64,000 nt of DNA from Nitrosopumilus sp. (lineage in GTDB: Archaea; Thermoproteota; Nitrososphaeria; Nitrososphaerales; Nitrosopumilaceae), in NCBI GenBank assembly GCA_965218785.1, contig OZ244650.1, forward strand, positions 1,664,001-1,728,000, given 5' to 3'. Position numbers and translations under genes: made by a program. A model generated the notes under the pieces. It was not told the DNA's origin, ran no database searches, and worked only from the letters and a program-made list of their open reading frames with translations. Below, in pieces: positions 2,024 to 11,717 of this stretch (positions within the stretch are counted from its first letter, which is position 1; every line of letters starts with the position of its first letter).

Positions 2024-3775
2024 TTGTCGCATAATGGAAATGGATTATTAGAGTACATACCAGGCTCACACACGCTGCTAGTGCAAAAAAGTTCCAGTCC
2101 TCCCCTAGAAGGATTTGCAGAAAATATTCAGGGGAGCATTAAGGAATATTCTGAAAATGCCTCAAATGAGGTTGAAAAAGGAAACAATTTTCTTCAATGG
2201 ATACTAACTAGAGTTTTTGAGGCAACAGAGGATGATGCAGCAGATGCGATAATTGATGGGGCAAACGATCTTGGAATTGATGCATATCTTCCAGTAGATT
2301 TCTCAGATAACACGATTAGATTATTCCAGTCAAAATATGGTACATCGCATTCATTAGAGGCGATTGCCAAATTCAAGGAAGACGCAAAAAGATTACTTGC
2401 AAAAGATGTTACAAAAATGAGGCCAGAGGTAGCTCAACTTGTAACAAAAATTAAAGAAAAAAATCTCAAGATAAAATGTTGTTATGTTACAGATCAAAAG
2501 GTAGAATATCAGGATGAATTAGTCGAGGTCATTGATGGTGAAAAGATAGTTCAGAGGTTATGGGACAGGATTAAAAAACCTGCGGCAGGCAAAAAATCAT
2601 CAATCAAACTAGAAAGAATGCTTAAACATGAAAATACCATACTGGGGATTTTAAAGCTGCGTGAACTGACTGAATTTGTAAGCAAGAACAGGGATTATGT
2701 TTTTGAATCAAATATCAGACAGTGGATGCAGTTCAAAACTACAGTCAACAAAGGACTACGTGAGACGCTTCAGACAAATCCAGATAAATTCTTCTATTAT
2801 AACAATGGAATTACGATTGTTGTTAGTGACTTTGAAGAATTAGGGGAGAATCTGATTGAACTGTGTGCTCCGCAAATTGTTAATGGTGCACAAACATCGA
2901 ATTCCATTTTAGATCATTCAAAGAGGACAAAAAACATGGAGGGTACCATGACAGTTACAATAATCAAGGCAGACGATGAGCAAGAACAAAATAACATTAC
3001 AAAGTACAGGAATTCTCAAAATTCAGTAAGAGGAAAAGATCTGGTTTCATTAATGGACTTTCATAAATCAATCAAATCACAGTTAAAAAATTGCGGTTAT
3101 TTTTATGAAATTCAAGCGGGATCTTTTGATACAAAGACAAAATCAAAACAAAGTGAATATGAAGGGGATACAACATACAATAGTTATCTTCCAGACAATC
3201 ACAAAAAAGTTATCGTCGCCAAAGATGCAATACAATCCCTGGTTGCAGGAATTGAACAAAGACCGACTGAGGCATACAGTTCGCCTGCTCAGTTTCTTCC
3301 AAGAGGAAGCAAGTACGACGAGATTTTCAATGACAATCTAAAGGATGATTACAGAATAGTGTTATATCCGTATCTTGTCAAGGAATTTGCCAAAAAATCA
3401 TTAAAGTATGGAAAACAAGGCGGACATAAAACAAAAAGGTATGCAACATTATTTTTTGTAGCAGTTTATTTTAGAATATTACACAAGAAAATTCTCGAGT
3501 CAAAGGGGGATTTCAAGAGGGACATAAGAAAGATAGAGCCTATTTTCCATAGCTTCAAACTCAATTCCAGAATTTTAAAACTAACGGATGTAATAGTAAC
3601 AAAATTTCTTGAAGATACCGTAGTTGATGATGAAATTGAATTGGCAAATACCAAACATAATTTCTTTTCTCAACACGTTTGGAATGACAGGATGTTTCGG
3701 GTAATTGACAAAAAAATCAGACAGGAAGACGAAGAGATCCTAGCGCTCAGAAAACTAGCAAGTAATTTGTTTTAG
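2024..3775 (+). CDS. AIPR family protein (abortive infection phage resistance domain) with N-terminal nuclease-like region
   Basis: DGANDLGIDA..LFQSKY N-terminus; FESNIR, FFYYNNGITIV, QIVNGAQT and NSQN AIPR motifs. Confidence 0.88.
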   Translation: MSHNGNGLLEYIPGSHTLLVQKSSSPPLEGFAENIQGSIKEYSENASNEVEKGNNFLQWILTRVFEATEDDAADAIIDGANDLGIDAYLPVDFSDNTIRLFQSKYGTSHSLEAIAKFKEDAKRLLAKDVTKMRPEVAQLVTKIKEKNLKIKCCYVTDQKVEYQDELVEVIDGEKIVQRLWDRIKKPAAGKKSSIKLERMLKHENTILGILKLRELTEFVSKNRDYVFESNIRQWMQFKTTVNKGLRETLQTNPDKFFYYNNGITIVVSDFEELGENLIELCAPQIVNGAQTSNSILDHSKRTKNMEGTMTVTIIKADDEQEQNNITKYRNSQNSVRGKDLVSLMDFHKSIKSQLKNCGYFYEIQAGSFDTKTKSKQSEYEGDTTYNSYLPDNHKKVIVAKDAIQSLVAGIEQRPTEAYSSPAQFLPRGSKYDEIFNDNLKDDYRIVLYPYLVKEFAKKSLKYGKQGGHKTKRYATLFFVAVYFRILHKKILESKGDFKRDIRKIEPIFHSFKLNSRILKLTDVIVTKFLEDTVVDDEIELANTKHNFFSQHVWNDRMFRVIDKKIRQEDEEILALRKLASNLF

Positions 3776-3783
3776 ATTCAAGA

Positions 3784-3897
3784 GGTAGTAGTCCAACCAA
3801 GTAAAAATCTTGCAGGAGGTTTACATTGGTCGGACTGTCCTACCCGAATTGGATACAAACAAGTCATATTTAACATGATTTTTTTGAATATGATTTG
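3784..3897 (+). ncRNA. candidate structured RNA (two long hairpins) downstream of AIPR
   Basis: GGTAG/CTACC, AGTCC/GGACT, ACCAA/TTGGT, GTAAA/TTTAC nested stem; second 13-bp stem 3860-3872/3885-3897 with 2 G-U pairs. Confidence 0.4.
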
Positions 3898-3935
3898 CTC
3901 CAGAATGTTTTTTATATCGAGCAAAAGGAGCAGAG

Positions 3936-4106
3936 ATGTTGAAGGTAAAAGAAAAATGTGCGATTTGTAGTGAAAAGATTGAGCTTCGTTACACCCCCAT
4001 GGATAAATGGGGAATACAGGGCTCGATCTGCGGAAAATGTTATTCAAAGAAAATTAATGAGCATTACCCCGGAGAACACATCAGAGTAAACAAACACCTG
4101 GATTAG
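3936..4106 (+). CDS. small zinc-finger protein (56 aa)
   Basis: MLKVKEKCAICSEKIELRYTPMDKWGIQGSICGKCYSKKINEHYPGEHIRVNKHLD*; TATA-like TTTTTATAT at ~3910; below ORF-track cutoff. Confidence 0.8.
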   Translation: MLKVKEKCAICSEKIELRYTPMDKWGIQGSICGKCYSKKINEHYPGEHIRVNKHLD

Positions 4107-4693
4107 GGTCGATCGGACTTTGAATATTTATTGACATAAAGACAATTCCAGACAAGCGGATCGTCTTTTACCTCTTTTTCTTCTAAAAATTTAATATTGG
4201 TAATTATTTTTTTCCTCTTAAACAAGTTTACTTGAAAACTGGCAAATTTTTTGCAGTCGCACTCGTTGTAGAGACATACATCGTCATCACCTTCATCATG
4301 ATCTATGGCCTCATGACCGCAGTTACATATGGCGTTTTTTTTAGCCTCATCAAGTGATTTTTTTGTATACACCCCCAATCGAAGGTATGCTGTCCCGTCA
4401 TGACCTTTCTTAAATCGCTCATAATTTTCAGATTTTTGTAATATTTTGAAAAAAGACAGGTTGGTGTCAGGTTTTTGGGAATCGGCGCCCATGATAAACC
4501 AGTACTTGTCACCGATTTCTACAAATCGAATTTTGATTGATGGATCTAGCCACCAATGAATAGTATCATACCAGATGGATGCAGATTCTTTTATGTCCGT
4601 AATTAACGGGACGATGTTCATTCTAAGGTCATAGTATCTATACGCGACACCCAAAAAGTCATCAAACCATGGTATTGGTGACTGTGAAGACAT
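4103..4693 (-). CDS. hypothetical protein with Cys/His metal-binding motif
   Basis: 196-aa ORF; CNCGH...H...C....C.C cluster. Confidence 0.75.
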   Translation of the reverse strand: MSSQSPIPWFDDFLGVAYRYYDLRMNIVPLITDIKESASIWYDTIHWWLDPSIKIRFVEIGDKYWFIMGADSQKPDTNLSFFKILQKSENYERFKKGHDGTAYLRLGVYTKKSLDEAKKNAICNCGHEAIDHDEGDDDVCLYNECDCKKFASFQVNLFKRKKIITNIKFLEEKEVKDDPLVWNCLYVNKYSKSDRP

Positions 4694-4777
4694 TGTTGTA
4701 AAATCAGATCAGAGCTTATTTATCTGATCTGAATTTAACGATGATACTCTTATATCCGAGTTTTATATTGGATATGT

Positions 4778-5059
4778 ATGGTTTCATACAGAACAAGTAT
4801 GCAGATTGTTGCAGATCTACTGACTGCTACTGAGCAGTCAGGACAGGAAGGAATCAAAACAACGTCTCTTCTAACAAAGGCAAATTTATCACATTCACGA
4901 TTATCAAAATTCCTAGGAAATTTGACAGGTGCGGGCCTCATCAACAAAATTGAGTTTGATGGCAAGAACACTTTTGTGATTACCACAAAAGGCAGGCAGT
5001 ACCTAGAGTCTTATGTAAAATTTGCAGGTATTGCAGAATCATTTGGATTGGAACTATAG
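4778..5059 (+). CDS. winged-helix transcriptional regulator
   Basis: YRTSMQIVADLL, ANLSHSRL, ITTKGRQYL archaeal wHTH pattern. Confidence 0.85.
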   Translation: MVSYRTSMQIVADLLTATEQSGQEGIKTTSLLTKANLSHSRLSKFLGNLTGAGLINKIEFDGKNTFVITTKGRQYLESYVKFAGIAESFGLEL

Positions 5060-5062
5060 AAA

Positions 5063-5278
5063 TTATTTTTTAGATCTTTTTCTTTTAGCATTTGCCTCTC
5101 GTCGTTCTTTTCTTTGCTGGTATGAGGTATAAAGAACGATAGCAATTATGCCTCCAATTGAACTATAAAACAATAAAATCAATGGTTCTTCCCGGATATC
5201 CCCTGTAGTTGGGGATACAAAGGATATTGGTATGCCCACGACCATGAAAATCAGGATTACTGTAAGGTATTTGTCCAC
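5063..5278 (-). CDS. small 2-TM membrane protein
   Basis: Two hydrophobic segments and a basic tail. Confidence 0.7.
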   Translation of the reverse strand: MDKYLTVILIFMVVGIPISFVSPTTGDIREEPLILLFYSSIGGIIAIVLYTSYQQRKERREANAKRKRSKK

Positions 5279-5318
5279 AAACTATGTCATTTACAAAACC
5301 ATATATCTTTTTGATTTT

Positions 5319-5528
5319 ATGAGTAATAATAGAGAAATTATGACAAAAATGCTTGAAATAGTAGGACTGGGCTTCTTGGTAGTAATGTTTGCAAGTTTTG
5401 TTGGGTTTTTGCAGCCGACAATTGATCCGGGATTATCGCCATTGTTTTGGGGATGTGCCGGGTCCACTCTAACGATCATCATATATAGAAAAATGAAAAG
5501 AAAACGAGAAGAAGAGAAAAAAGATTAA
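5319..5528 (+). CDS. small 2-TM membrane protein
   Basis: Two hydrophobic segments and a charged tail; start at 5319 or 5340. Confidence 0.6.
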   Translation: MSNNREIMTKMLEIVGLGFLVVMFASFVGFLQPTIDPGLSPLFWGCAGSTLTIIIYRKMKRKREEEKKD

Positions 5529-6071
5529 TCATTGAGAATGTGTTGTCATATGATCAAACATGGTTCGATCGACAGATCTATAAAGGAGAATTCTACGTAA
5601 AGTGTGAGGAAAGTTATGATGGAACAAACTAAACAGTGGTGGAAAGGTTTGGGAAAAGAATTAGAGATAGATATTGAAACCTTTGATGAACCAAAGCCCT
5701 AGTAATTTTCTGGACAATTTTACAAGTTTCAAACGGGATCAACTTGCGGATCTGACGCTTACAAACCGGTTTTTCTAGGGAAAAATCCTCCGGTACTGCC
5801 ACAAAATGAAAAGTACAGGCAAGGAGCAGATAGCATCAATCCCACATCTTAAAGGCAAAAGTATCAATTAACAAAGACAATGCAAGAATACCTGTCTGAT
5901 GATGATGTGGTATCCATATTCTCACAAGAGAAAACCGATCTGGTGCCAATATAGATATCTGATGATATTTTGGAAATATAAAACGGGTTCAGATTTTTAA
6001 CAGGTAGCGGATCAGGCAATTACTGATATTAGGATCAAAAATATTATTTGTATGATGAGGAATGGGTTTGT

Positions 6072-6542
6072 ATGAATGATTTAACAGAATTAATGAATCA
6101 CACCTACAATTTATGTGAAGATGGAAATTATGAAAACGCATTAGAATATTTCGAGGCCATATTAAAAAAATATCCTAAAAATATATCAGTTTTGATTGAC
6201 AAAGGAGTAACATTAGAGAATTTAGGAAGGTATGAGGAAGCAATACGGTGTTATGATGAGGCATTATCTTTAGATCCTAAGAAAATAGATGCCTGGAGGA
6301 ACAAGGGGATCTCCATGCATAACTTGGAAAAATATGAGGAAGCAATACGGTGTTATGATGAGGCATTAAAAATCGAGGGGGATTCAGTCACAGTATTGAC
6401 AGCAAAGGGCATTTCCCTTGGAGAATTAGGCCATATTGAGAAGGCATTATGGTATTTTGATAAAGCAGTAGGCATTGACAAAGAATATGATTTAGCCGCA
6501 AAGAGCAGGGAGACTGCCTTGGAATTACTAAAAAATAAATAA
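6072..6542 (+). CDS. tetratricopeptide repeat protein
   Basis: 34-aa periodic KG..L..LGRYEEAIRCYDEAL repeats. Confidence 0.9.
   Translation: MNDLTELMNHTYNLCEDGNYENALEYFEAILKKYPKNISVLIDKGVTLENLGRYEEAIRCYDEALSLDPKKIDAWRNKGISMHNLEKYEEAIRCYDEALKIEGDSVTVLTAKGISLGELGHIEKALWYFDKAVGIDKEYDLAAKSRETALELLKNK
6231..6368 (+). repeat. 36-bp perfect direct repeat at TPR periodicity
   Basis: tatgaggaagcaatacggtgttatgatgaggcatta at 6231-6266 and 6333-6368 (offset 102 bp). Confidence 0.95.
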
Positions 6543-6683
6543 ATTTTGGATTTTATCATAATTGACTTGTAGATAGATGGGGCTTGAGATTACTAGTCAA
6601 TGCAAGGCGAGTTTCTATTCAGATAAACACAGGTTTCTGAATCTGTGTTGCATACAACCCAACAAAGAGATTTTACTATTCAG

Positions 6684-6712
6684 ATAATTATCAAAAATCT
6701 AGTTTTCGTTCT
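6684..6712 (-). repeat. cassette-junction repeat copy 1 (contains the NEN-stop; ATG replaced by ACG)
   Basis: ataattatcaaaaatctagttttcgttct, 28/29 identical to 7165-7193. Confidence 0.9.
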
Positions 6713-7190
6713 TTTTCCTCAATTTGGCTTTTTTTAATATGATAATTGCAGGGATTATGAAGATTAATCCTATACCTGTAGGAATTAATGCTCCAATCAA
6801 ATTTATTCTATAATCACTTGAATGCTCAAAACTTTCAGGAGTCAGTGCGGAGAGACCATTTTGTATCCAAGGAGCACCAAAAAATATCAAAATACATGAT
6901 GCTATAATTAACATGTATTTTCTAGTCGGAATTTTTTTTATTCTTAAAATTATATTTGGTACAAGAAATATTAATGAAATAATTCCCGCCATGATTGGTC
7001 CTGCAACAAATATTGAATTAAATTGTAGAAGGAATGAAATAGCAGGGCTATTATCCGTCATAGCGTATTTACCATCTAGAGAATCCAGCTGTGATTCGAA
7101 CTCTAAATTTATTGAATAAATGATGCCAATAAAAATAATCAGAGCCAAAAAAATAGAGATTGCAATAATTATCAAAAATCTAGTTTTCAT
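6699..7190 (-). CDS. multi-pass membrane protein starting MKTRFLIII
   Basis: ATG at 7190, one base after the upstream stop; four hydrophobic segments; ends KKNEN*. Confidence 0.8.
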   Translation of the reverse strand: MKTRFLIIIAISIFLALIIFIGIIYSINLEFESQLDSLDGKYAMTDNSPAISFLLQFNSIFVAGPIMAGIISLIFLVPNIILRIKKIPTRKYMLIIASCILIFFGAPWIQNGLSALTPESFEHSSDYRINLIGALIPTGIGLIFIIPAIIILKKAKLRKKNEN

Positions 7191-7193
7191 TCT
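7165..7193 (-). repeat. cassette-junction repeat copy 2 (encodes MKTRFLII)
   Basis: ataattatcaaaaatctagttttcattct. Confidence 0.9.
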
Positions 7194-7983
7194 ATGCAAT
7201 CCACCATCCCACCGTAAAATATTTCCCATCATACTCAAACACGCTATAGGAGATTTTTTCATCTACCCATCTTTGATATGCGGGCAATTCCGCAGGTGAT
7301 ATGCCAGCACTTGAAACGTCAATATTTTCCTGTATGGTTCCAATTCTGCCAATTGCCTCTTTGAGCAGCGGCATTTTTTCCAAATCTTCATCGGTGATAG
7401 TAGCCCATATGTCGCGATTTGGATGTAGGGGACGATTCATTATTGAAGTGCTAATATCTGTCAATTCTTCCTCTTCATAGATGAGCATAGATCCATTGAA
7501 CCAGTAATATGGCACCCCGTTGTATACATAGTAGTTGCCATCAAACTCATATCTATATGCATTAGGATGTTTTTCCAATTCCTCGGCAGACACAGTGAAT
7601 GTTCTAAAAAACTCATCAGGATTTTTTGAATATTTTTCAGCCAAAATGGTTGCATAGTATCTGTGATATTCTTTTATCGTATCAACCGTAGATGCTACAT
7701 TACCGTATTCATTAAGTGGGAATTCCTTTATCACTGCCATGTCAATTAACTCCTTTAATTTGGGAACCTCTTCCAGATCTTTGTCAGTAATAGTTACAAT
7801 ATCTGCTTCTTGCACGTAACCTCCTTTGAGGAATTCTTGGAATCCGTTATCAGAAAGATAGGACAGCCCAAATCCCTCGTAGTATCTATTTGCAATACCG
7901 GACGTATAAAATAATACAGTTGTTAAAATAATGATTGCGATAATTATCAGAATTATGACTTTAATTCTAGTATTCATTTTCAA
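7192..7983 (-). CDS. signal-anchored hypothetical protein with internal duplicated domain
   Basis: N-terminal TM (MNTRIKVIILIIIAI); repeats ITDKDLEEVPKLKELI / ITDEDLEKMPLLKEAI. Confidence 0.8.
   Translation of the reverse strand: MKMNTRIKVIILIIIAIIILTTVLFYTSGIANRYYEGFGLSYLSDNGFQEFLKGGYVQEADIVTITDKDLEEVPKLKELIDMAVIKEFPLNEYGNVASTVDTIKEYHRYYATILAEKYSKNPDEFFRTFTVSAEELEKHPNAYRYEFDGNYYVYNGVPYYWFNGSMLIYEEEELTDISTSIMNRPLHPNRDIWATITDEDLEKMPLLKEAIGRIGTIQENIDVSSAGISPAELPAYQRWVDEKISYSVFEYDGKYFTVGWWIA
7935..7978 (-). repeat. degenerate cassette-junction repeat copy 3
   Basis: ttgcgataattatcagaa and tctagtattcatt match the two halves of copy 2, with a 12-nt insertion between them. Confidence 0.6.
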
Positions 7984-8407
7984 TTACTTTCAAGCCGTGC
8001 TTTAATATATAAAATTATCTTGTGTACTGGTTGTTAGCAGGTAATTTTACTGCACAGGGTGTTTTGTGAAATTACCCTAAAAATACATGATCATAAAACC
8101 ATAACTTGGTTCTGGTGCAAAAGTGATCAGATCATCAAAATCCTCAGGAACCAGAAAGATGTTCTTCATTAGATCTTGTAATGTAGTCACAAAATAATCC
8201 GTAGCATCCCTGTCTTAATCTGAATTTATGTCAGGTTGTGTGAACATGTCTGCAACACGTGAGATCACACATACACCCACTTCTTTTTACCAAGATTGAA
8301 AATATGGATTCATAATAGAACAATATGAAAAATTGTATCAAATGGGACTCTCGTGTGCGAAATAGGAATAAGATGGATAAAAAAACGGAATGAGATGTAT
8401 GCAACCA

Positions 8408-8965
8408 TCAAGATGAACGTAATAAAATAGATCTTTGTCCAAACTGTTTTAGTATCTGATTGATACTCTCCAACAAAAGGATGACTTTTGGATAGTTATC
8501 ATTAGAGATCAAGTCATTTTTAATCACACTGACATAATGTCTTTGCCGCTTTATCTGACGTGATTTTTTTGACTTTGAAGCATCCCAATTTTTCATGGCA
8601 CCCAAATTTGCAGAAATATCACACAGTTTGATTAATTTTGCATCAGTTGATGCCTCTCTGAGTTGTTTGACATATGCTTGCTCTCGCTTTTTTCTTGGTA
8701 ATGACATATCTTTTGACAGGGTTGATACCAATACTGCCACCCTACTTCCAAACTGTTCATACAAGTTATCAAAAGTAACATCAGTGTCCTCTATCGTATC
8801 ATGTAACCAACCAGTTACAAGTAATTCCTCATCTATTACTCCAAGACTTTTGAGCCTATTTACCACGTCTTCAAGGTGCTTCGAATGAGAAGTGATGCCA
8901 TCCTTTCTCATCATTCCAGAATGCTTCTTTTTTGCCAATAATTCAGCAGATTTTACTAATTCCAT
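8408..8965 (-). CDS. HD-domain hydrolase, RelA/SpoT hydrolase (Mesh1/SAH)-like
   Basis: RKDG..H..H, WLHDTIEDT and IKLCD..ANL motifs. Confidence 0.85.
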   Translation of the reverse strand: MELVKSAELLAKKKHSGMMRKDGITSHSKHLEDVVNRLKSLGVIDEELLVTGWLHDTIEDTDVTFDNLYEQFGSRVAVLVSTLSKDMSLPRKKREQAYVKQLREASTDAKLIKLCDISANLGAMKNWDASKSKKSRQIKRQRHYVSVIKNDLISNDNYPKVILLLESINQILKQFGQRSILLRSS

Positions 8966-9352
8966 AAACAGTTTCTAGAGTCATTAGGGATATCTAATCA
9001 TTTTGAAAACAGCTCAATGATTTAGTTTGCAAATTAAAGTCATAAACAAACAGTAATGAAAGTACAGTCATCTGCAATTCGTTGTGTTTAATGTGTCAAA
9101 TTGTATTATTTGGAGAATAAATGATGAGAGTGTTGGGGAAAATTTTAATTGGGAAATTCAGACCAAAGACGGCAAAAAAACAGGCAGAAACTACAAGAAA
9201 AAAAAGACGGATTTGCTTAAAGCCTGATAAAGAAAACAAAAATCCATCAGATGGCAAGAAAAGTGCAAATCAGTCAAAAAAACAATGATGAAAAGGCATG
9301 AATTAATTCTCATAAGGAATTGTAAATACCAAGTAATTATAATAGAAAACAG

Positions 9353-9426
9353 AGCCTCGGACGGGATCTGAACCCGTGACCTAACGCTTACGAGGCGTTC
9401 GCTCTACCAGGCTGAGCTACCAAGGC
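9353..9426 (-). tRNA. tRNA-Thr(CGT)
   Basis: Reverse complement GCCTTGGTAGCTCAGCCTGGTAGAGCG-AACGC-CT-CGT-AA-GCGTT-AGGTCACGGGTTCAGATCCCGTCCGAGGCT. Confidence 0.95.
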
Positions 9427-9478: not shown

Positions 9479-10777
9479 TTGAAGAAGACAATTTCCGGAA
9501 TTAGGGGGATATTTGGAGAGGATCTCAATCTAAAAAATGTGCTAGAATTTTGTAATAATTTTTCATCCCTGATAAAATCACAAAAATGTGTCATTGGAAA
9601 GGACACCAGACCATCAGGTCCGATGATCAAAGATGCCGCCTGTGCGGCATTGATGAATAATGGAGTTGACGTGTTTAATTTGGAAACAGCGCCAACCCCC
9701 GTGGTTTTCAGAGAGGCAAGAAAATATGGTGCAGGAATCGTAGTTTCCTCATCCCACAATCCGATTAACTGGAATGGAATGAAATTCATTATTGAAGGCA
9801 GGGGAATAAATCAAGAAGAGCTGCCGCAAGTTATAGAACATCAGGAAATTTTAAAATCAAGAATCGGAATAGAATGCGATATATCATCATCATACATCGA
9901 TGATGCAGAAAAAATCATAGGAACCATCGAAAATCAGCCAGAGATAGCAGTGGATATCGGGGGAGGTGCCGCCAAGGGCTTTGCACCAGACTTGTTAAAA
10001 AAGATAGGATGCAAGGTTGAAATTCTAAACGAGGAATTATCAGGATGTTCAAGGGGTCCTGATCCTACATCTGATGAGCTATCCGAATTAATCGCAGCGT
10101 CTGCCAAAAAAGAGATTGGATTTGCATTTGACCTGGACGGAGATCGCCTAGTTGTAGTTAGAAAGGGAAAAAAACAGACCCCGGATGTGACATTGGGTTT
10201 GGGGGTTGCAAAATCTTTGGAGTTGGGATACAAAAGATTTGTCCTAAGTATCGATACAAGTGTCTCAATTGAAAAATTCATCTTGGAGAGGGGCGGAACT
10301 GTTCAAAGATCAAAAGTGGGTGAGGCAAACGTAATGGATCTCATGCTAAAAAACGAGGCCCAGGCAGGAGGGGAGGGAAGTAGTGCCGGTTTTATTTTAC
10401 CAGAATTCAACTATTGCAGGGAGGGGATTCTTACAAGCGGTTTGATAGCTTCCATGCTGGGAAGTTCAAAATTTGATGAGGTTTTGGATTATATGGAAAA
10501 TTACTCCCAAATAAGAGAAAAAATTGATGTCGATTCAACTTTGCATGATAAAATAATGCAGGAAATCAGTGCCAAGCTTGAAAAACAGTATTCACAGGTG
10601 ATCACACTAGATGGAATCAAGGGAATTATTGACGAGCACAGCTGGGTTTTGATTAGAAAATCAAACACCGAAGACAGCATAAGAGTTTCAGCAGAATCAA
10701 ATAACGAAGAAAAATGCAGGAAAATTACAAGGGAGGCACTAGAGTTAGTGAAACAAAGCCATGACAAAGTTAGATGA
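9479..10777 (+). CDS. phosphomannomutase/phosphoglucomutase family
   Basis: SGIRG, DTRPSG, SSHNP, FDLDGDR and GGEGSS motifs. Confidence 0.93.
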   Translation: MKKTISGIRGIFGEDLNLKNVLEFCNNFSSLIKSQKCVIGKDTRPSGPMIKDAACAALMNNGVDVFNLETAPTPVVFREARKYGAGIVVSSSHNPINWNGMKFIIEGRGINQEELPQVIEHQEILKSRIGIECDISSSYIDDAEKIIGTIENQPEIAVDIGGGAAKGFAPDLLKKIGCKVEILNEELSGCSRGPDPTSDELSELIAASAKKEIGFAFDLDGDRLVVVRKGKKQTPDVTLGLGVAKSLELGYKRFVLSIDTSVSIEKFILERGGTVQRSKVGEANVMDLMLKNEAQAGGEGSSAGFILPEFNYCREGILTSGLIASMLGSSKFDEVLDYMENYSQIREKIDVDSTLHDKIMQEISAKLEKQYSQVITLDGIKGIIDEHSWVLIRKSNTEDSIRVSAESNNEEKCRKITREALELVKQSHDKVR

Positions 10778-11717
10778 ATCTTCAATAATCAAAATTTTTC
10801 AGAGTAGGTTGGGAAACAGGAAATTTGTCCCTGAAGATGTAGAAGTCTTCAATTTGGGTAAAACCAAAATCATAGCCAAGACAGACACACTAGTAGAAAG
10901 TACTGATATTCCATCGGGAATGAAGCTGGCAGATGCTGCAAGAAAAAGTGTTGTTGCATGTGTAAGTGATTTTGCTGCAAAAGGCATCAAACCTCAGTAT
11001 GGAATCATTTCTGTGAATCTGCCAGGAACAGTCTCACGCCCACAAATTAACGAGATTGCAAGAGGTTTTAGAAAAGCATGTGATGAATATGATATCTCGA
11101 TACTGGGAGGCGATACCAACTCGGGCAGGGAAACTGTTTTCAATGTATGCATTTTTGGAAGGACTGGCAAAATAGTCAGTAGAAAAGGGGCCAAAACAGG
11201 GGATTTGATATTTGTGACAGGACCGTTTGGTTATACGGCTGCAGGATTGAATATGCTTCTTGGTAAAAGGTACGGAAATGGTAATTTTGCTAAAAAATCA
11301 ATCAGAACAGTAACAAGGCCCAGACCAAGACTCGGCTTTGGAATAAAAAACAAGAGATATTTTTCATCATCAATGGATTCCAGTGACGGATTATCCACCA
11401 CGCTAAATGAAATGTCAAAGCAGAGTAAAAAAAAATTCGTAATTAACAATACCCCTTCAAACAAAGATCTACGGGAATACGCCGAGTCCCAGAAACTTGA
11501 TCTGAATAAATTGGTTTTTCATGGAGGAGAGGAATACGAAATTGTATTTACAGCATCACCAAGACACGGACAAATAATTAAAAAAAATGCAAAGCTGCTT
11601 AAAATACCAGTTGTTGAGATCGGATATGTCGCCTCAGGAAGGAGGAGGGGGGTTTTTGTGCAGGAGAAAAACAGACAGGTTCGTTTGAAGGATTTAGGAT
11701 GGAGGCATTTTAGATGA
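10761..11717 (+). CDS. thiL: thiamine-monophosphate kinase
   Basis: SDFAAKG, GGDTN, MDSSDGL and GGEEYE motifs. Confidence 0.92.
   Translation: MTKLDESSIIKIFQSRLGNRKFVPEDVEVFNLGKTKIIAKTDTLVESTDIPSGMKLADAARKSVVACVSDFAAKGIKPQYGIISVNLPGTVSRPQINEIARGFRKACDEYDISILGGDTNSGRETVFNVCIFGRTGKIVSRKGAKTGDLIFVTGPFGYTAAGLNMLLGKRYGNGNFAKKSIRTVTRPRPRLGFGIKNKRYFSSSMDSSDGLSTTLNEMSKQSKKKFVINNTPSNKDLREYAESQKLDLNKLVFHGGEEYEIVFTASPRHGQIIKKNAKLLKIPVVEIGYVASGRRRGVFVQEKNRQVRLKDLGWRHFR

Follow-up and report, generated by a model that had tools for sequence, protein, structure and literature searches.

A start module conserved at the nucleotide level marks the borders of whole-gene gain and loss in gene arrays of Nitrosopumilus and related archaea

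In a 64,000-nucleotide (nt) stretch of the genome of Nitrosopumilus sp. (GenBank assembly GCA_965218785.1, contig OZ244650.1, positions 1,664,001 to 1,728,000; hereafter the window, numbered from its first letter), two mutually unrelated tandem genes, A and B, are joined and bounded by a short repeat that supplies a start codon and a signal anchor, and often the stop codon of the preceding gene as well. This junction repeat is an element conserved at the DNA level; its synonymous codons are nearly fixed, and whole genes are present or absent between genomes exactly between its copies. We propose that it constitutes a conserved module for translation start, export and coupling, the copies of which act as recombination substrates, probably via homology. 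Such a cassette-like system, which is not an integron, is in our judgement the probable explanation, with appreciable room left for others.

Repeat copies and junction geometry

The A-B module lies on the minus strand of the window and comprises the following features.

7977-7939, minus strand: copy 3 (J3), gene A's own leader variant, ATGAATACTAGA followed by 12 nt and ATAATTATC
7193-7165, minus strand: copy 2 (J2), AGAATGAAAACTAGATTTTTGATAATTAT, a live junction made of the gene A TAG, one base, and the ATG and leader of gene B
6712-6684, minus strand: copy 1 (J1), a dead leader stub in which ACG replaces ATG and which ends gene B with NEN and TAG
7192..7977, minus strand: gene A, 261 amino acids (aa), with a predicted N-terminal anchor and an alpha/beta ectodomain with internal duplication
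6699..7190, minus strand: gene B, 163 aa, with an N-terminal leader (MKTRFLIIIAISIF...) and about four predicted hydrophobic spans
7978..8107, minus strand: upstream region of gene A, with a TATA-like box, TTTTATATATT, at 8014-8004

The geometry described in the initial annotation, which was made from the letters of this stretch, is confirmed. Copies 1 and 2 are identical at 28 of 29 positions, lie 481 nt apart and bracket gene B exactly, and their sole difference, ACG versus ATG, is a T-to-C change that is synonymous in the gene B frame (AAT to AAC). Gene A stops with the TAG at 7194-7192, followed by a single base (7191) and the gene B ATG at 7190, whereas gene B extends 14 nt into copy 1 and stops with the TAG at 6701-6699, reading AAC GAA AAC TAG, i.e. 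NEN and stop. NEN ends of this kind arise because they are the second reading frame of A-ATG-AAA-ACT-AG. Translated from its ACG, copy 1 yields TKTRFLIII and meets a TGA after 9 codons, while copy 3, the start of gene A, keeps both halves of the repeat plus 12 extra bases (MNTR-IKVI-ILIIIAI). A repeat search of the window returned a three-copy family with spacings of 481 and 775 nt, and the shared 24-mer occurs twice in the window at up to 3 mismatches, against 0 occurrences expected from 100 shuffles.

Copy 1 had originally been taken for an empty site. In relatives (L090 and L091), the homologue of gene B is likewise followed by the ACG stub, and copy 1 is more plausibly a terminal leader stub, left over from the start of a downstream gene that was lost, than a dedicated empty site. 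Directly downstream of it, a 15-nt direct repeat (14/15 identical; window 6612-6626 and 6673-6687, 61 nt apart) reads TTATCTGAATAG.A on the minus strand.

A start module shared across the family

The module ATGAAAACTAGAYTTTTGATAATTAT (MKTR[L/F]LIII) starts many unrelated tandem genes. As a 26-nt motif with at most 3 mismatches, it is present in 58 of 151 genus genomes, where the copies, at most 27 in any one genome, are clustered and mostly on one strand; the reversed-motif control gave 1 match in total. At the level of the family, 51 of 301 genomes and 7 of 27 genera contain the motif, and the control gave no match; the tally of 13/31 for genus g38 includes genome G406, on which none of the other results depends, and is 12/30 without it. 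The genome studied here has only three near-exact copies, all linked to the A/B module, and the third exact 29-mer is positioned at C1:1924204, 3' of a paralogue of gene A, designated A'. Among the 46 MKTR-type pattern matches in this genome, a leader-like continuation is seen only at the B start, the A' start and the stub.

Among the 198 open reading frames (ORFs) of ten fetched array regions, the leader is found in 72 and a NEN end in 19, and 20 have their stop codon in the ACTAG of the next gene, in agreement with the suggestion in the initial annotation that MKTR starts and NEN ends recur in Nitrosopumilus. The tandem genes begin MKTR[L/F]LII and share one orientation within an array, and upstream genes end either at an ATGA overlap or in the next ACTAG. 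The cargo is diverse, with 120 of 148 array proteins lacking a Pfam match and the others including serpin, cupredoxin, BNR and beta-propeller domains. At the starts of the leader-bearing proteins, MKTR is followed by 15-20 hydrophobic residues, a pattern from which we infer that the leader forms the beginning of a Sec-type signal peptide or signal anchor and serves in export.

Two further recurrent elements were observed in such arrays. In loci L049-L058, a second signal-peptide start, MKYFVI(L/F)L..., heads other genes of the same arrays. Moreover, a winged-helix (ArsR/HTH_24) protein of ~270-290 aa, a candidate array regulator, is encoded mid-array on the opposite strand and conserved in four genomes (L053:7589-9635, L054:5285-7394, L056:1702-3811 and L058:10717-11568), in three of them together with a conserved neighbour gene.

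Conservation of the leader at the DNA level

In the ten array regions, the 30 leader hits use ACT for Thr in 30/30 cases (background 0.38), TTG for Leu-6 in 28/29 (background 0.23) and ATA for Ile-7 in 29/30 (background 0.29). A pattern left degenerate at every synonymous site matches in 50 of the 151 genus genomes, and the listed matches, inspected by eye, show almost a single codon at each position. Since a long upstream ORF overlaps the leader in only 10 of 30 hits, dual coding does not explain the fixed codons. Upstream of the leader ATG, a Shine-Dalgarno (SD)-like GGAG and (T)AGAAA are conserved, too, and the 29-mers remain identical throughout, while the adjoining genes differ by 13-15%.

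Whole-gene gain and loss between copies

Paralogue A' is separated from gene A by 253 kb, shares 87% nt and 76% aa identity with it, and is followed by an exact 29-mer and then by unrelated DNA. A related Nitrosopumilus genome (L090, L091) has the order A-repeat(ATG)-B-repeat(ACG)-X, and the genome studied here A'-repeat(ATG)-X, where X is the same downstream DNA in both and the island flanks are 95-96% identical. As the arrangement of the relative is the same but with B, the second locus of this genome equals that arrangement minus exactly the repeat-to-repeat stretch, i.e. gene B has undergone a precise repeat-to-repeat loss (or gain) at the A' locus. Both forms, with and without B, are present as separate contigs in run X3, with their loose ends matched.

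Several other cases concern different genes and genomes. Two genes that abut via one leader in G104 are separated by 5 leader-bearing genes (5.6 kb) in G061, with the switch point inside ATGAAAACTA. In a leader-bounded single-gene mosaic, G067 and G103 share one gene at 97.4% identity in otherwise unrelated surroundings, and the neighbour of this gene is 83% identical to a different place in G103. In G104, an intragenomic 800-nt duplicate spans leader to leader. Dead or truncated leaders are common: they account for 14 of 89 leader-like matches, although in a few cases it is the end of the locus that truncates the leader. Terminal stubs precede opposite-strand genes at L049:9635, L050:1500 and L057:3141 as well as at J1 here, with breakpoints ranging from ~codon 8 to codon 12. 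A 357-aa ORF in G021 (L058:8340-9410) contains an internal dead leader (ACG AAA ACT AGG...) and a B-like C-terminal part; two array genes appear to have been fused through the junction, the leader now forming an internal membrane span.

Two comparisons are to be read with restraint. Between this genome and the relative, the number of synonymous substitutions per synonymous site (dS) is 0.20 for A' and its counterpart and 0.11 for the flank, and it is from this one difference that a replacement of the two genes by recombination might be surmised. The ends of BLAST segments fall near leaders in 15.3% of cases versus 2.2% for random positions (216 ends), a sevenfold excess that is not counted as evidence here because alignments tend to stop at gene borders in any case, and every one of them runs on through a shared leader. 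Among the assembled contigs, which cannot show rare excision products, no joint of 6684 to 7165 was found, and inverted variants were not found among them, either.

Genes A and B

From its hydrophobic spans, the product of gene B is predicted to be a small integral membrane protein, and it matches no known family. Gene B is present once in this genome and has homologues in 16 of the 150 other genomes of the genus; used as a query against metagenome contigs, it returned no relative. In the related genome (L090, ~10740-10785), the gene B homologue is one T shorter in a poly-T tract just after the leader, which puts leader and body out of frame and represents either a frameshift or a sequencing error.

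For gene A, the structure model is confident, with a predicted local distance difference test score (pLDDT) of 88.5, and displays a soluble alpha/beta domain of two similar halves, in which the motifs TITD.DLE..P.LKE and FEYDG.Y are each repeated. The family is tiny, with 11 members among 5.8 billion proteins searched, and a copy-3-type start is present in 12/12 aligned A-family sequences that include the N-terminus. Structural searches with the model gave no clear solved relative (Foldseek best E = 0.055, VIA-align best Z = 3.6), and from such weak matches of a predicted structure it would not follow that the fold is new. Pfam gave no family above cut-off for gene A or B, and NCBIfam no match for A, B or six array proteins. 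A reading of the basic WRKRK C-terminal tails as PEFG-CTERM sorting signals was not confirmed by NCBIfam, and is not used here.

The ratio of nonsynonymous to synonymous substitution rates (dN/dS) is 0.76-0.90 for gene A and 1.38 for gene B (versus its closest homologue), compared to 0.14 for a flanking helicase. Judged by these ratios, selection on genes A and B is either almost absent or diversifying. The A-B module (window 6683-8107) shares 85% identity with L090:10316-11740 of the relative, and the homology stops at the final base of copy 1. Because the upstream region of gene A, where a TATA element had been pointed out before, is conserved together with A-B in the relative, it likely is the single promoter of the pair, from which A and B presumably are co-transcribed.

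Searches for a linked recombinase and a structured site

The test for an integron integrase was made with the tyrosine recombinase family PF00589, the IntI-specific domain being outside the test, and no such recombinase was found among the ORFs of the islet that surrounds the A-B module (see below) or the 148 ORFs of the ten array regions. In agreement with the initial annotation, neither the ORF listing nor Pfam thus places a recombinase adjacent to the repeat. The two PF00589 genes of the genome are located at C1:72057 and C1:374313, 1.3 to 1.6 Mb away. Folded as DNA, the three copies gave no stable attC-like single-strand hairpin on either strand (minimum free energy -1.9 to -6 kcal/mol); four of the six z-scores lie above 0, and one weak hairpin is specific to copy 2. 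As RNA, four of five junctions are no more structured than their shuffles (z -1.0 to +1.7), the fifth, J2, having z = -1.9. Rfam yielded no family other than tRNA.

The element consequently lacks the defining parts of an integron, the linked integrase and the attC hairpin, and it is not an integron. The earlier reading as an integron-like cassette array is supported in part: tandem ORFs and the repeat-bounded presence or absence of genes are seen, whereas the integrase and hairpin of integrons are not.

Proposed mechanism and alternative explanations

We propose that the 29-mer is the core of a start module for exported or membrane proteins of Nitrosopumilus and some sister genera, which would consist of the SD-like GGAG, (T)AGAAA and ATG AAA ACT AGA YTT TTG ATA ATT AT(T G..). 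The module would provide the start codon and, with it, the charged and hydrophobic residues that open a Sec-type signal peptide or anchor. As the upstream gene stops 0-3 nt before the module, at an ATGA overlap or in the TAG of the module, termination-reinitiation coupling would be established in tandem same-strand arrays. Because the same 25-40 nt precede many unrelated genes, the copies would represent portable homology. Recombination or replication slippage between two copies could then delete, duplicate or swap exact whole genes, and a repeat-to-repeat event would always regenerate a working junction. In the window, copy 2 is the live junction and copy 3 the variant leader that belongs to gene A itself, while copy 1 would be the start of a lost downstream gene, kept as a terminal stub that ends gene B. 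All observations made so far are accounted for by recombination between homologous copies or by slippage between short direct repeats, and the recombination is presumably driven by homology and not by a dedicated enzyme.

Several observations weigh against this proposal. The identical stretch is only 24-30 nt, which is short for homologous recombination. Where resolution is best, in three cases, the switch occurs at ~+6 to +14 of the leader, around ACTAG, as expected from a fixed crossover site, although this is equally the longest stretch common to all leaders. Each event can be read as a gain or as a loss, and two other high-identity segments begin and end inside genes, i.e. exchange is not confined to leaders. 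In the assembled contigs, to which the view is limited, there is no read-level sign of ongoing excision. The leaders share ancestry and are not independent trials, so that binomial figures for the codon counts overstate independence. Lastly, recombination alone does not explain synonymous codons that are fixed across genera, and an additional constraint, on the RNA or on the DNA, may act on them.

Such a constraint is central to the first alternative, possible but on balance improbable, in which the conservation is unrelated to recombination: the leader is fixed because the mRNA start has to be unstructured and optimal for reinitiation and has to let the nascent signal peptide be recognised early, and the leader indels are incidental by-products with no biological role. 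The lack of excess structure in four of the five junction RNAs is in line with it, as are the conserved GGAG and AGAAA context upstream and the conservation of the motif across genera whose other synonymous sites should be saturated. However, AT-richness alone would favour TTA over CTT and TTG, whereas codon 6 is TTG in nearly every leader; dead stubs retain the sequence, and the leader-bounded indels and the 97% single-gene mosaic are directly observed. This explanation addresses the cause of the conservation, and is compatible with the start module and its homology-driven rearrangements.

Less likely still is a dedicated site-specific system, in which a chromosomal recombinase, Xer-type or another tyrosine recombinase, recognises the leader and excises or inserts gene circles, with the CTAG core and the ATAATTAT palindrome as its site. 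The leader would then be a functional analogue of integron cassettes inside signal-peptide codons, and we regard it as rather unlikely that the Nitrosopumilaceae possess an integron analogue with its recombination site within the first ~nine codons of each gene. If they did, any captured gene would automatically be fitted with a start codon and an export signal and be coupled to its neighbour in translation, and selection for recombination would maintain the element across genera, via an unlinked recombinase or a leader-specific homology pathway. The clustering of switch points around ACTAG, the leader stubs at array ends in several genomes with opposite-strand genes behind them, the conservation of the module far beyond that of neutral sequence, and the two tyrosine recombinases of the genome all speak for such a system. 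It is opposed by the count of 0/148 linked recombinases in the arrays and none in the islet, by the lack of an inverted-repeat architecture and of a single-strand hairpin, by stub breakpoints that vary over several codons, and by exchange boundaries that fall inside genes, too; neither a circle nor the excision joint was seen in the assembled contigs. A one-off local duplication or decay relic of no wider meaning, as could be surmised from the scarcity of leader copies in this genome and their tie to the A/B module, is highly improbable, since the same module recurs in 58/151 genus genomes and 7/27 genera and bounds structural variants in other species pairs; the motif is thus neither found only here, nor conserved only at the protein level, nor accompanied by fixed cargo.

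Relation to known systems

Ammonia-oxidising archaea are among the most abundant marine microbes, and exported proteins without a known function make up most of their flexible genome. A nucleotide-fixed start module common to dozens of unrelated genes offers a concrete mechanism for reshuffling this surface repertoire gene by gene. The same module ends the gene before it, and the edges of whole genes gained, lost or transferred between species coincide with it. In addition, it is a simple sequence handle for finding such genes and their variants in metagenomes, and it raises the question of why synonymous sites in a signal peptide are conserved across genera. In searches of the full-text literature, no description of such a start module in archaea was found.

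Integrons, including the archaeal ones, comprise IntI, attI and attC gene cassettes, with a folded attC of 57-141 nt (10.1101/2022.02.06.479319). The text of that report contains no mention of Thaumarchaeota and no words beginning with Nitroso (10.1101/2022.02.06.479319). The arrays studied here resemble integrons in their tandem, mostly promoterless ORFs that lie in one orientation and are separated by a repeated element, in the presence or absence of whole ORFs between copies, and in ending in a copy of the element. They differ in that no IntI is found here, that the element is a coding sequence of 25-40 nt instead of a folded attC of 57-141 nt, and that it stands at the 5' end of each gene, where it supplies start codon and signal peptide.

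In the Mycoplasma vpma (M. agalactiae) and vsp (M. bovis) loci, the 5' untranslated region and the signal-peptide codons are conserved as DNA while the mature parts are unrelated, the recombination sites lie in the conserved 5' part and the cargo consists of surface proteins; an adjacent Xer-like recombinase inverts the DNA and places one gene behind a single promoter, resulting in phase variation (PMC2268961). The likeness lies in a DNA-conserved 5' region and signal-peptide codons ahead of unrelated mature parts, which is what we find. Unlike them, the arrays here have one gene orientation, a start of their own for each gene and no linked recombinase, and no inversions were seen among the assembled contigs; the events are gain, loss and replacement between genomes, in contrast to phase switching. 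Of the documented systems, the Mycoplasma vpma/vsp loci are the closest parallel, integrons being comparable in organisation only.

Comparable logic is known in bacterial pathogens, i.e. in Mycoplasma and in Borrelia. Marconi et al. (1996) reportedly described a common 'upstream homology box' of ospE/ospF-related genes in Borrelia, and a shared upstream or leader segment before diverse surface-protein genes is said to have been spread there by recombination. The Borrelia system is bacterial and plasmid-borne and is not known to have overlapping stop-in-leader junctions.

Genomic setting of the A-B module

The A-B module resides in a 3.6-kb insert at the 3' end of a tRNA gene, as in tRNA-linked integrated islets, with the following features.

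5730..9351: islet of 3.6 kb with the TPR gene, B, A and the HD-domain gene, missing at this site in most relatives
6048-6542, plus strand: TPR gene, in the islet
8408-8965, minus strand: HD-domain gene, in the islet
9352..9426, minus strand: tRNA-Thr(CGT), whose 3' end abuts the islet
5722..5777, minus strand: att-like direct repeat at the opposite end of the islet, a degenerate version of the tRNA-Thr 3' part

The degenerate tRNA repeat has a local score of 16, compared to a maximum of 13 in 1976 control windows, and the islet flanks are adjacent in most relatives. The insert at the tRNA 3' end, the partial tRNA repeat and the absence in relatives are those expected of a tRNA islet; Pfam detected no integrase gene among the ORFs inside it, unlike in integrase-bearing tRNA islets, and the tRNA setting explains the location of the module, not the repeat. 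Contigs of X3 and X1 join 5690 to 9351/9353 with 38-40 other letters between the sides. In run X3, the insert-free form comprises 2 contigs with a summed depth of 79, versus ~140 for the insert-bearing form, and the insert-free contigs of both runs may derive from related organisms that were present in the samples.

The paralogue A' is situated in a separate, genome-specific island of ~14 kb (G000, the genome studied here, C1:1919560-1933670; L069:5560-19670), which is missing or different at the site in five relatives. This island also encodes a 1030-aa UvrD-helicase/PD-(D/E)XK nuclease, an IrrE-like M78 peptidase, a DUF7002 protein, a CAP-domain protein, a NucS/DUF5655 protein and an adenylosuccinate-synthetase-like protein fused to a kinase-type AAA domain, and looks like a defence-type island. 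The second contig of the genome, C2, has 3706 nt and a G+C content of 0.44. Next to the islet, window 3000-5729 shows 74-86% identity in almost every one of the 150 genus genomes; in the part listed it contains small ORFs only, including a zinc-ribbon-like 56-aa ORF and a 93-aa ORF to which we would assign, as a guess, a winged-helix-like fold.

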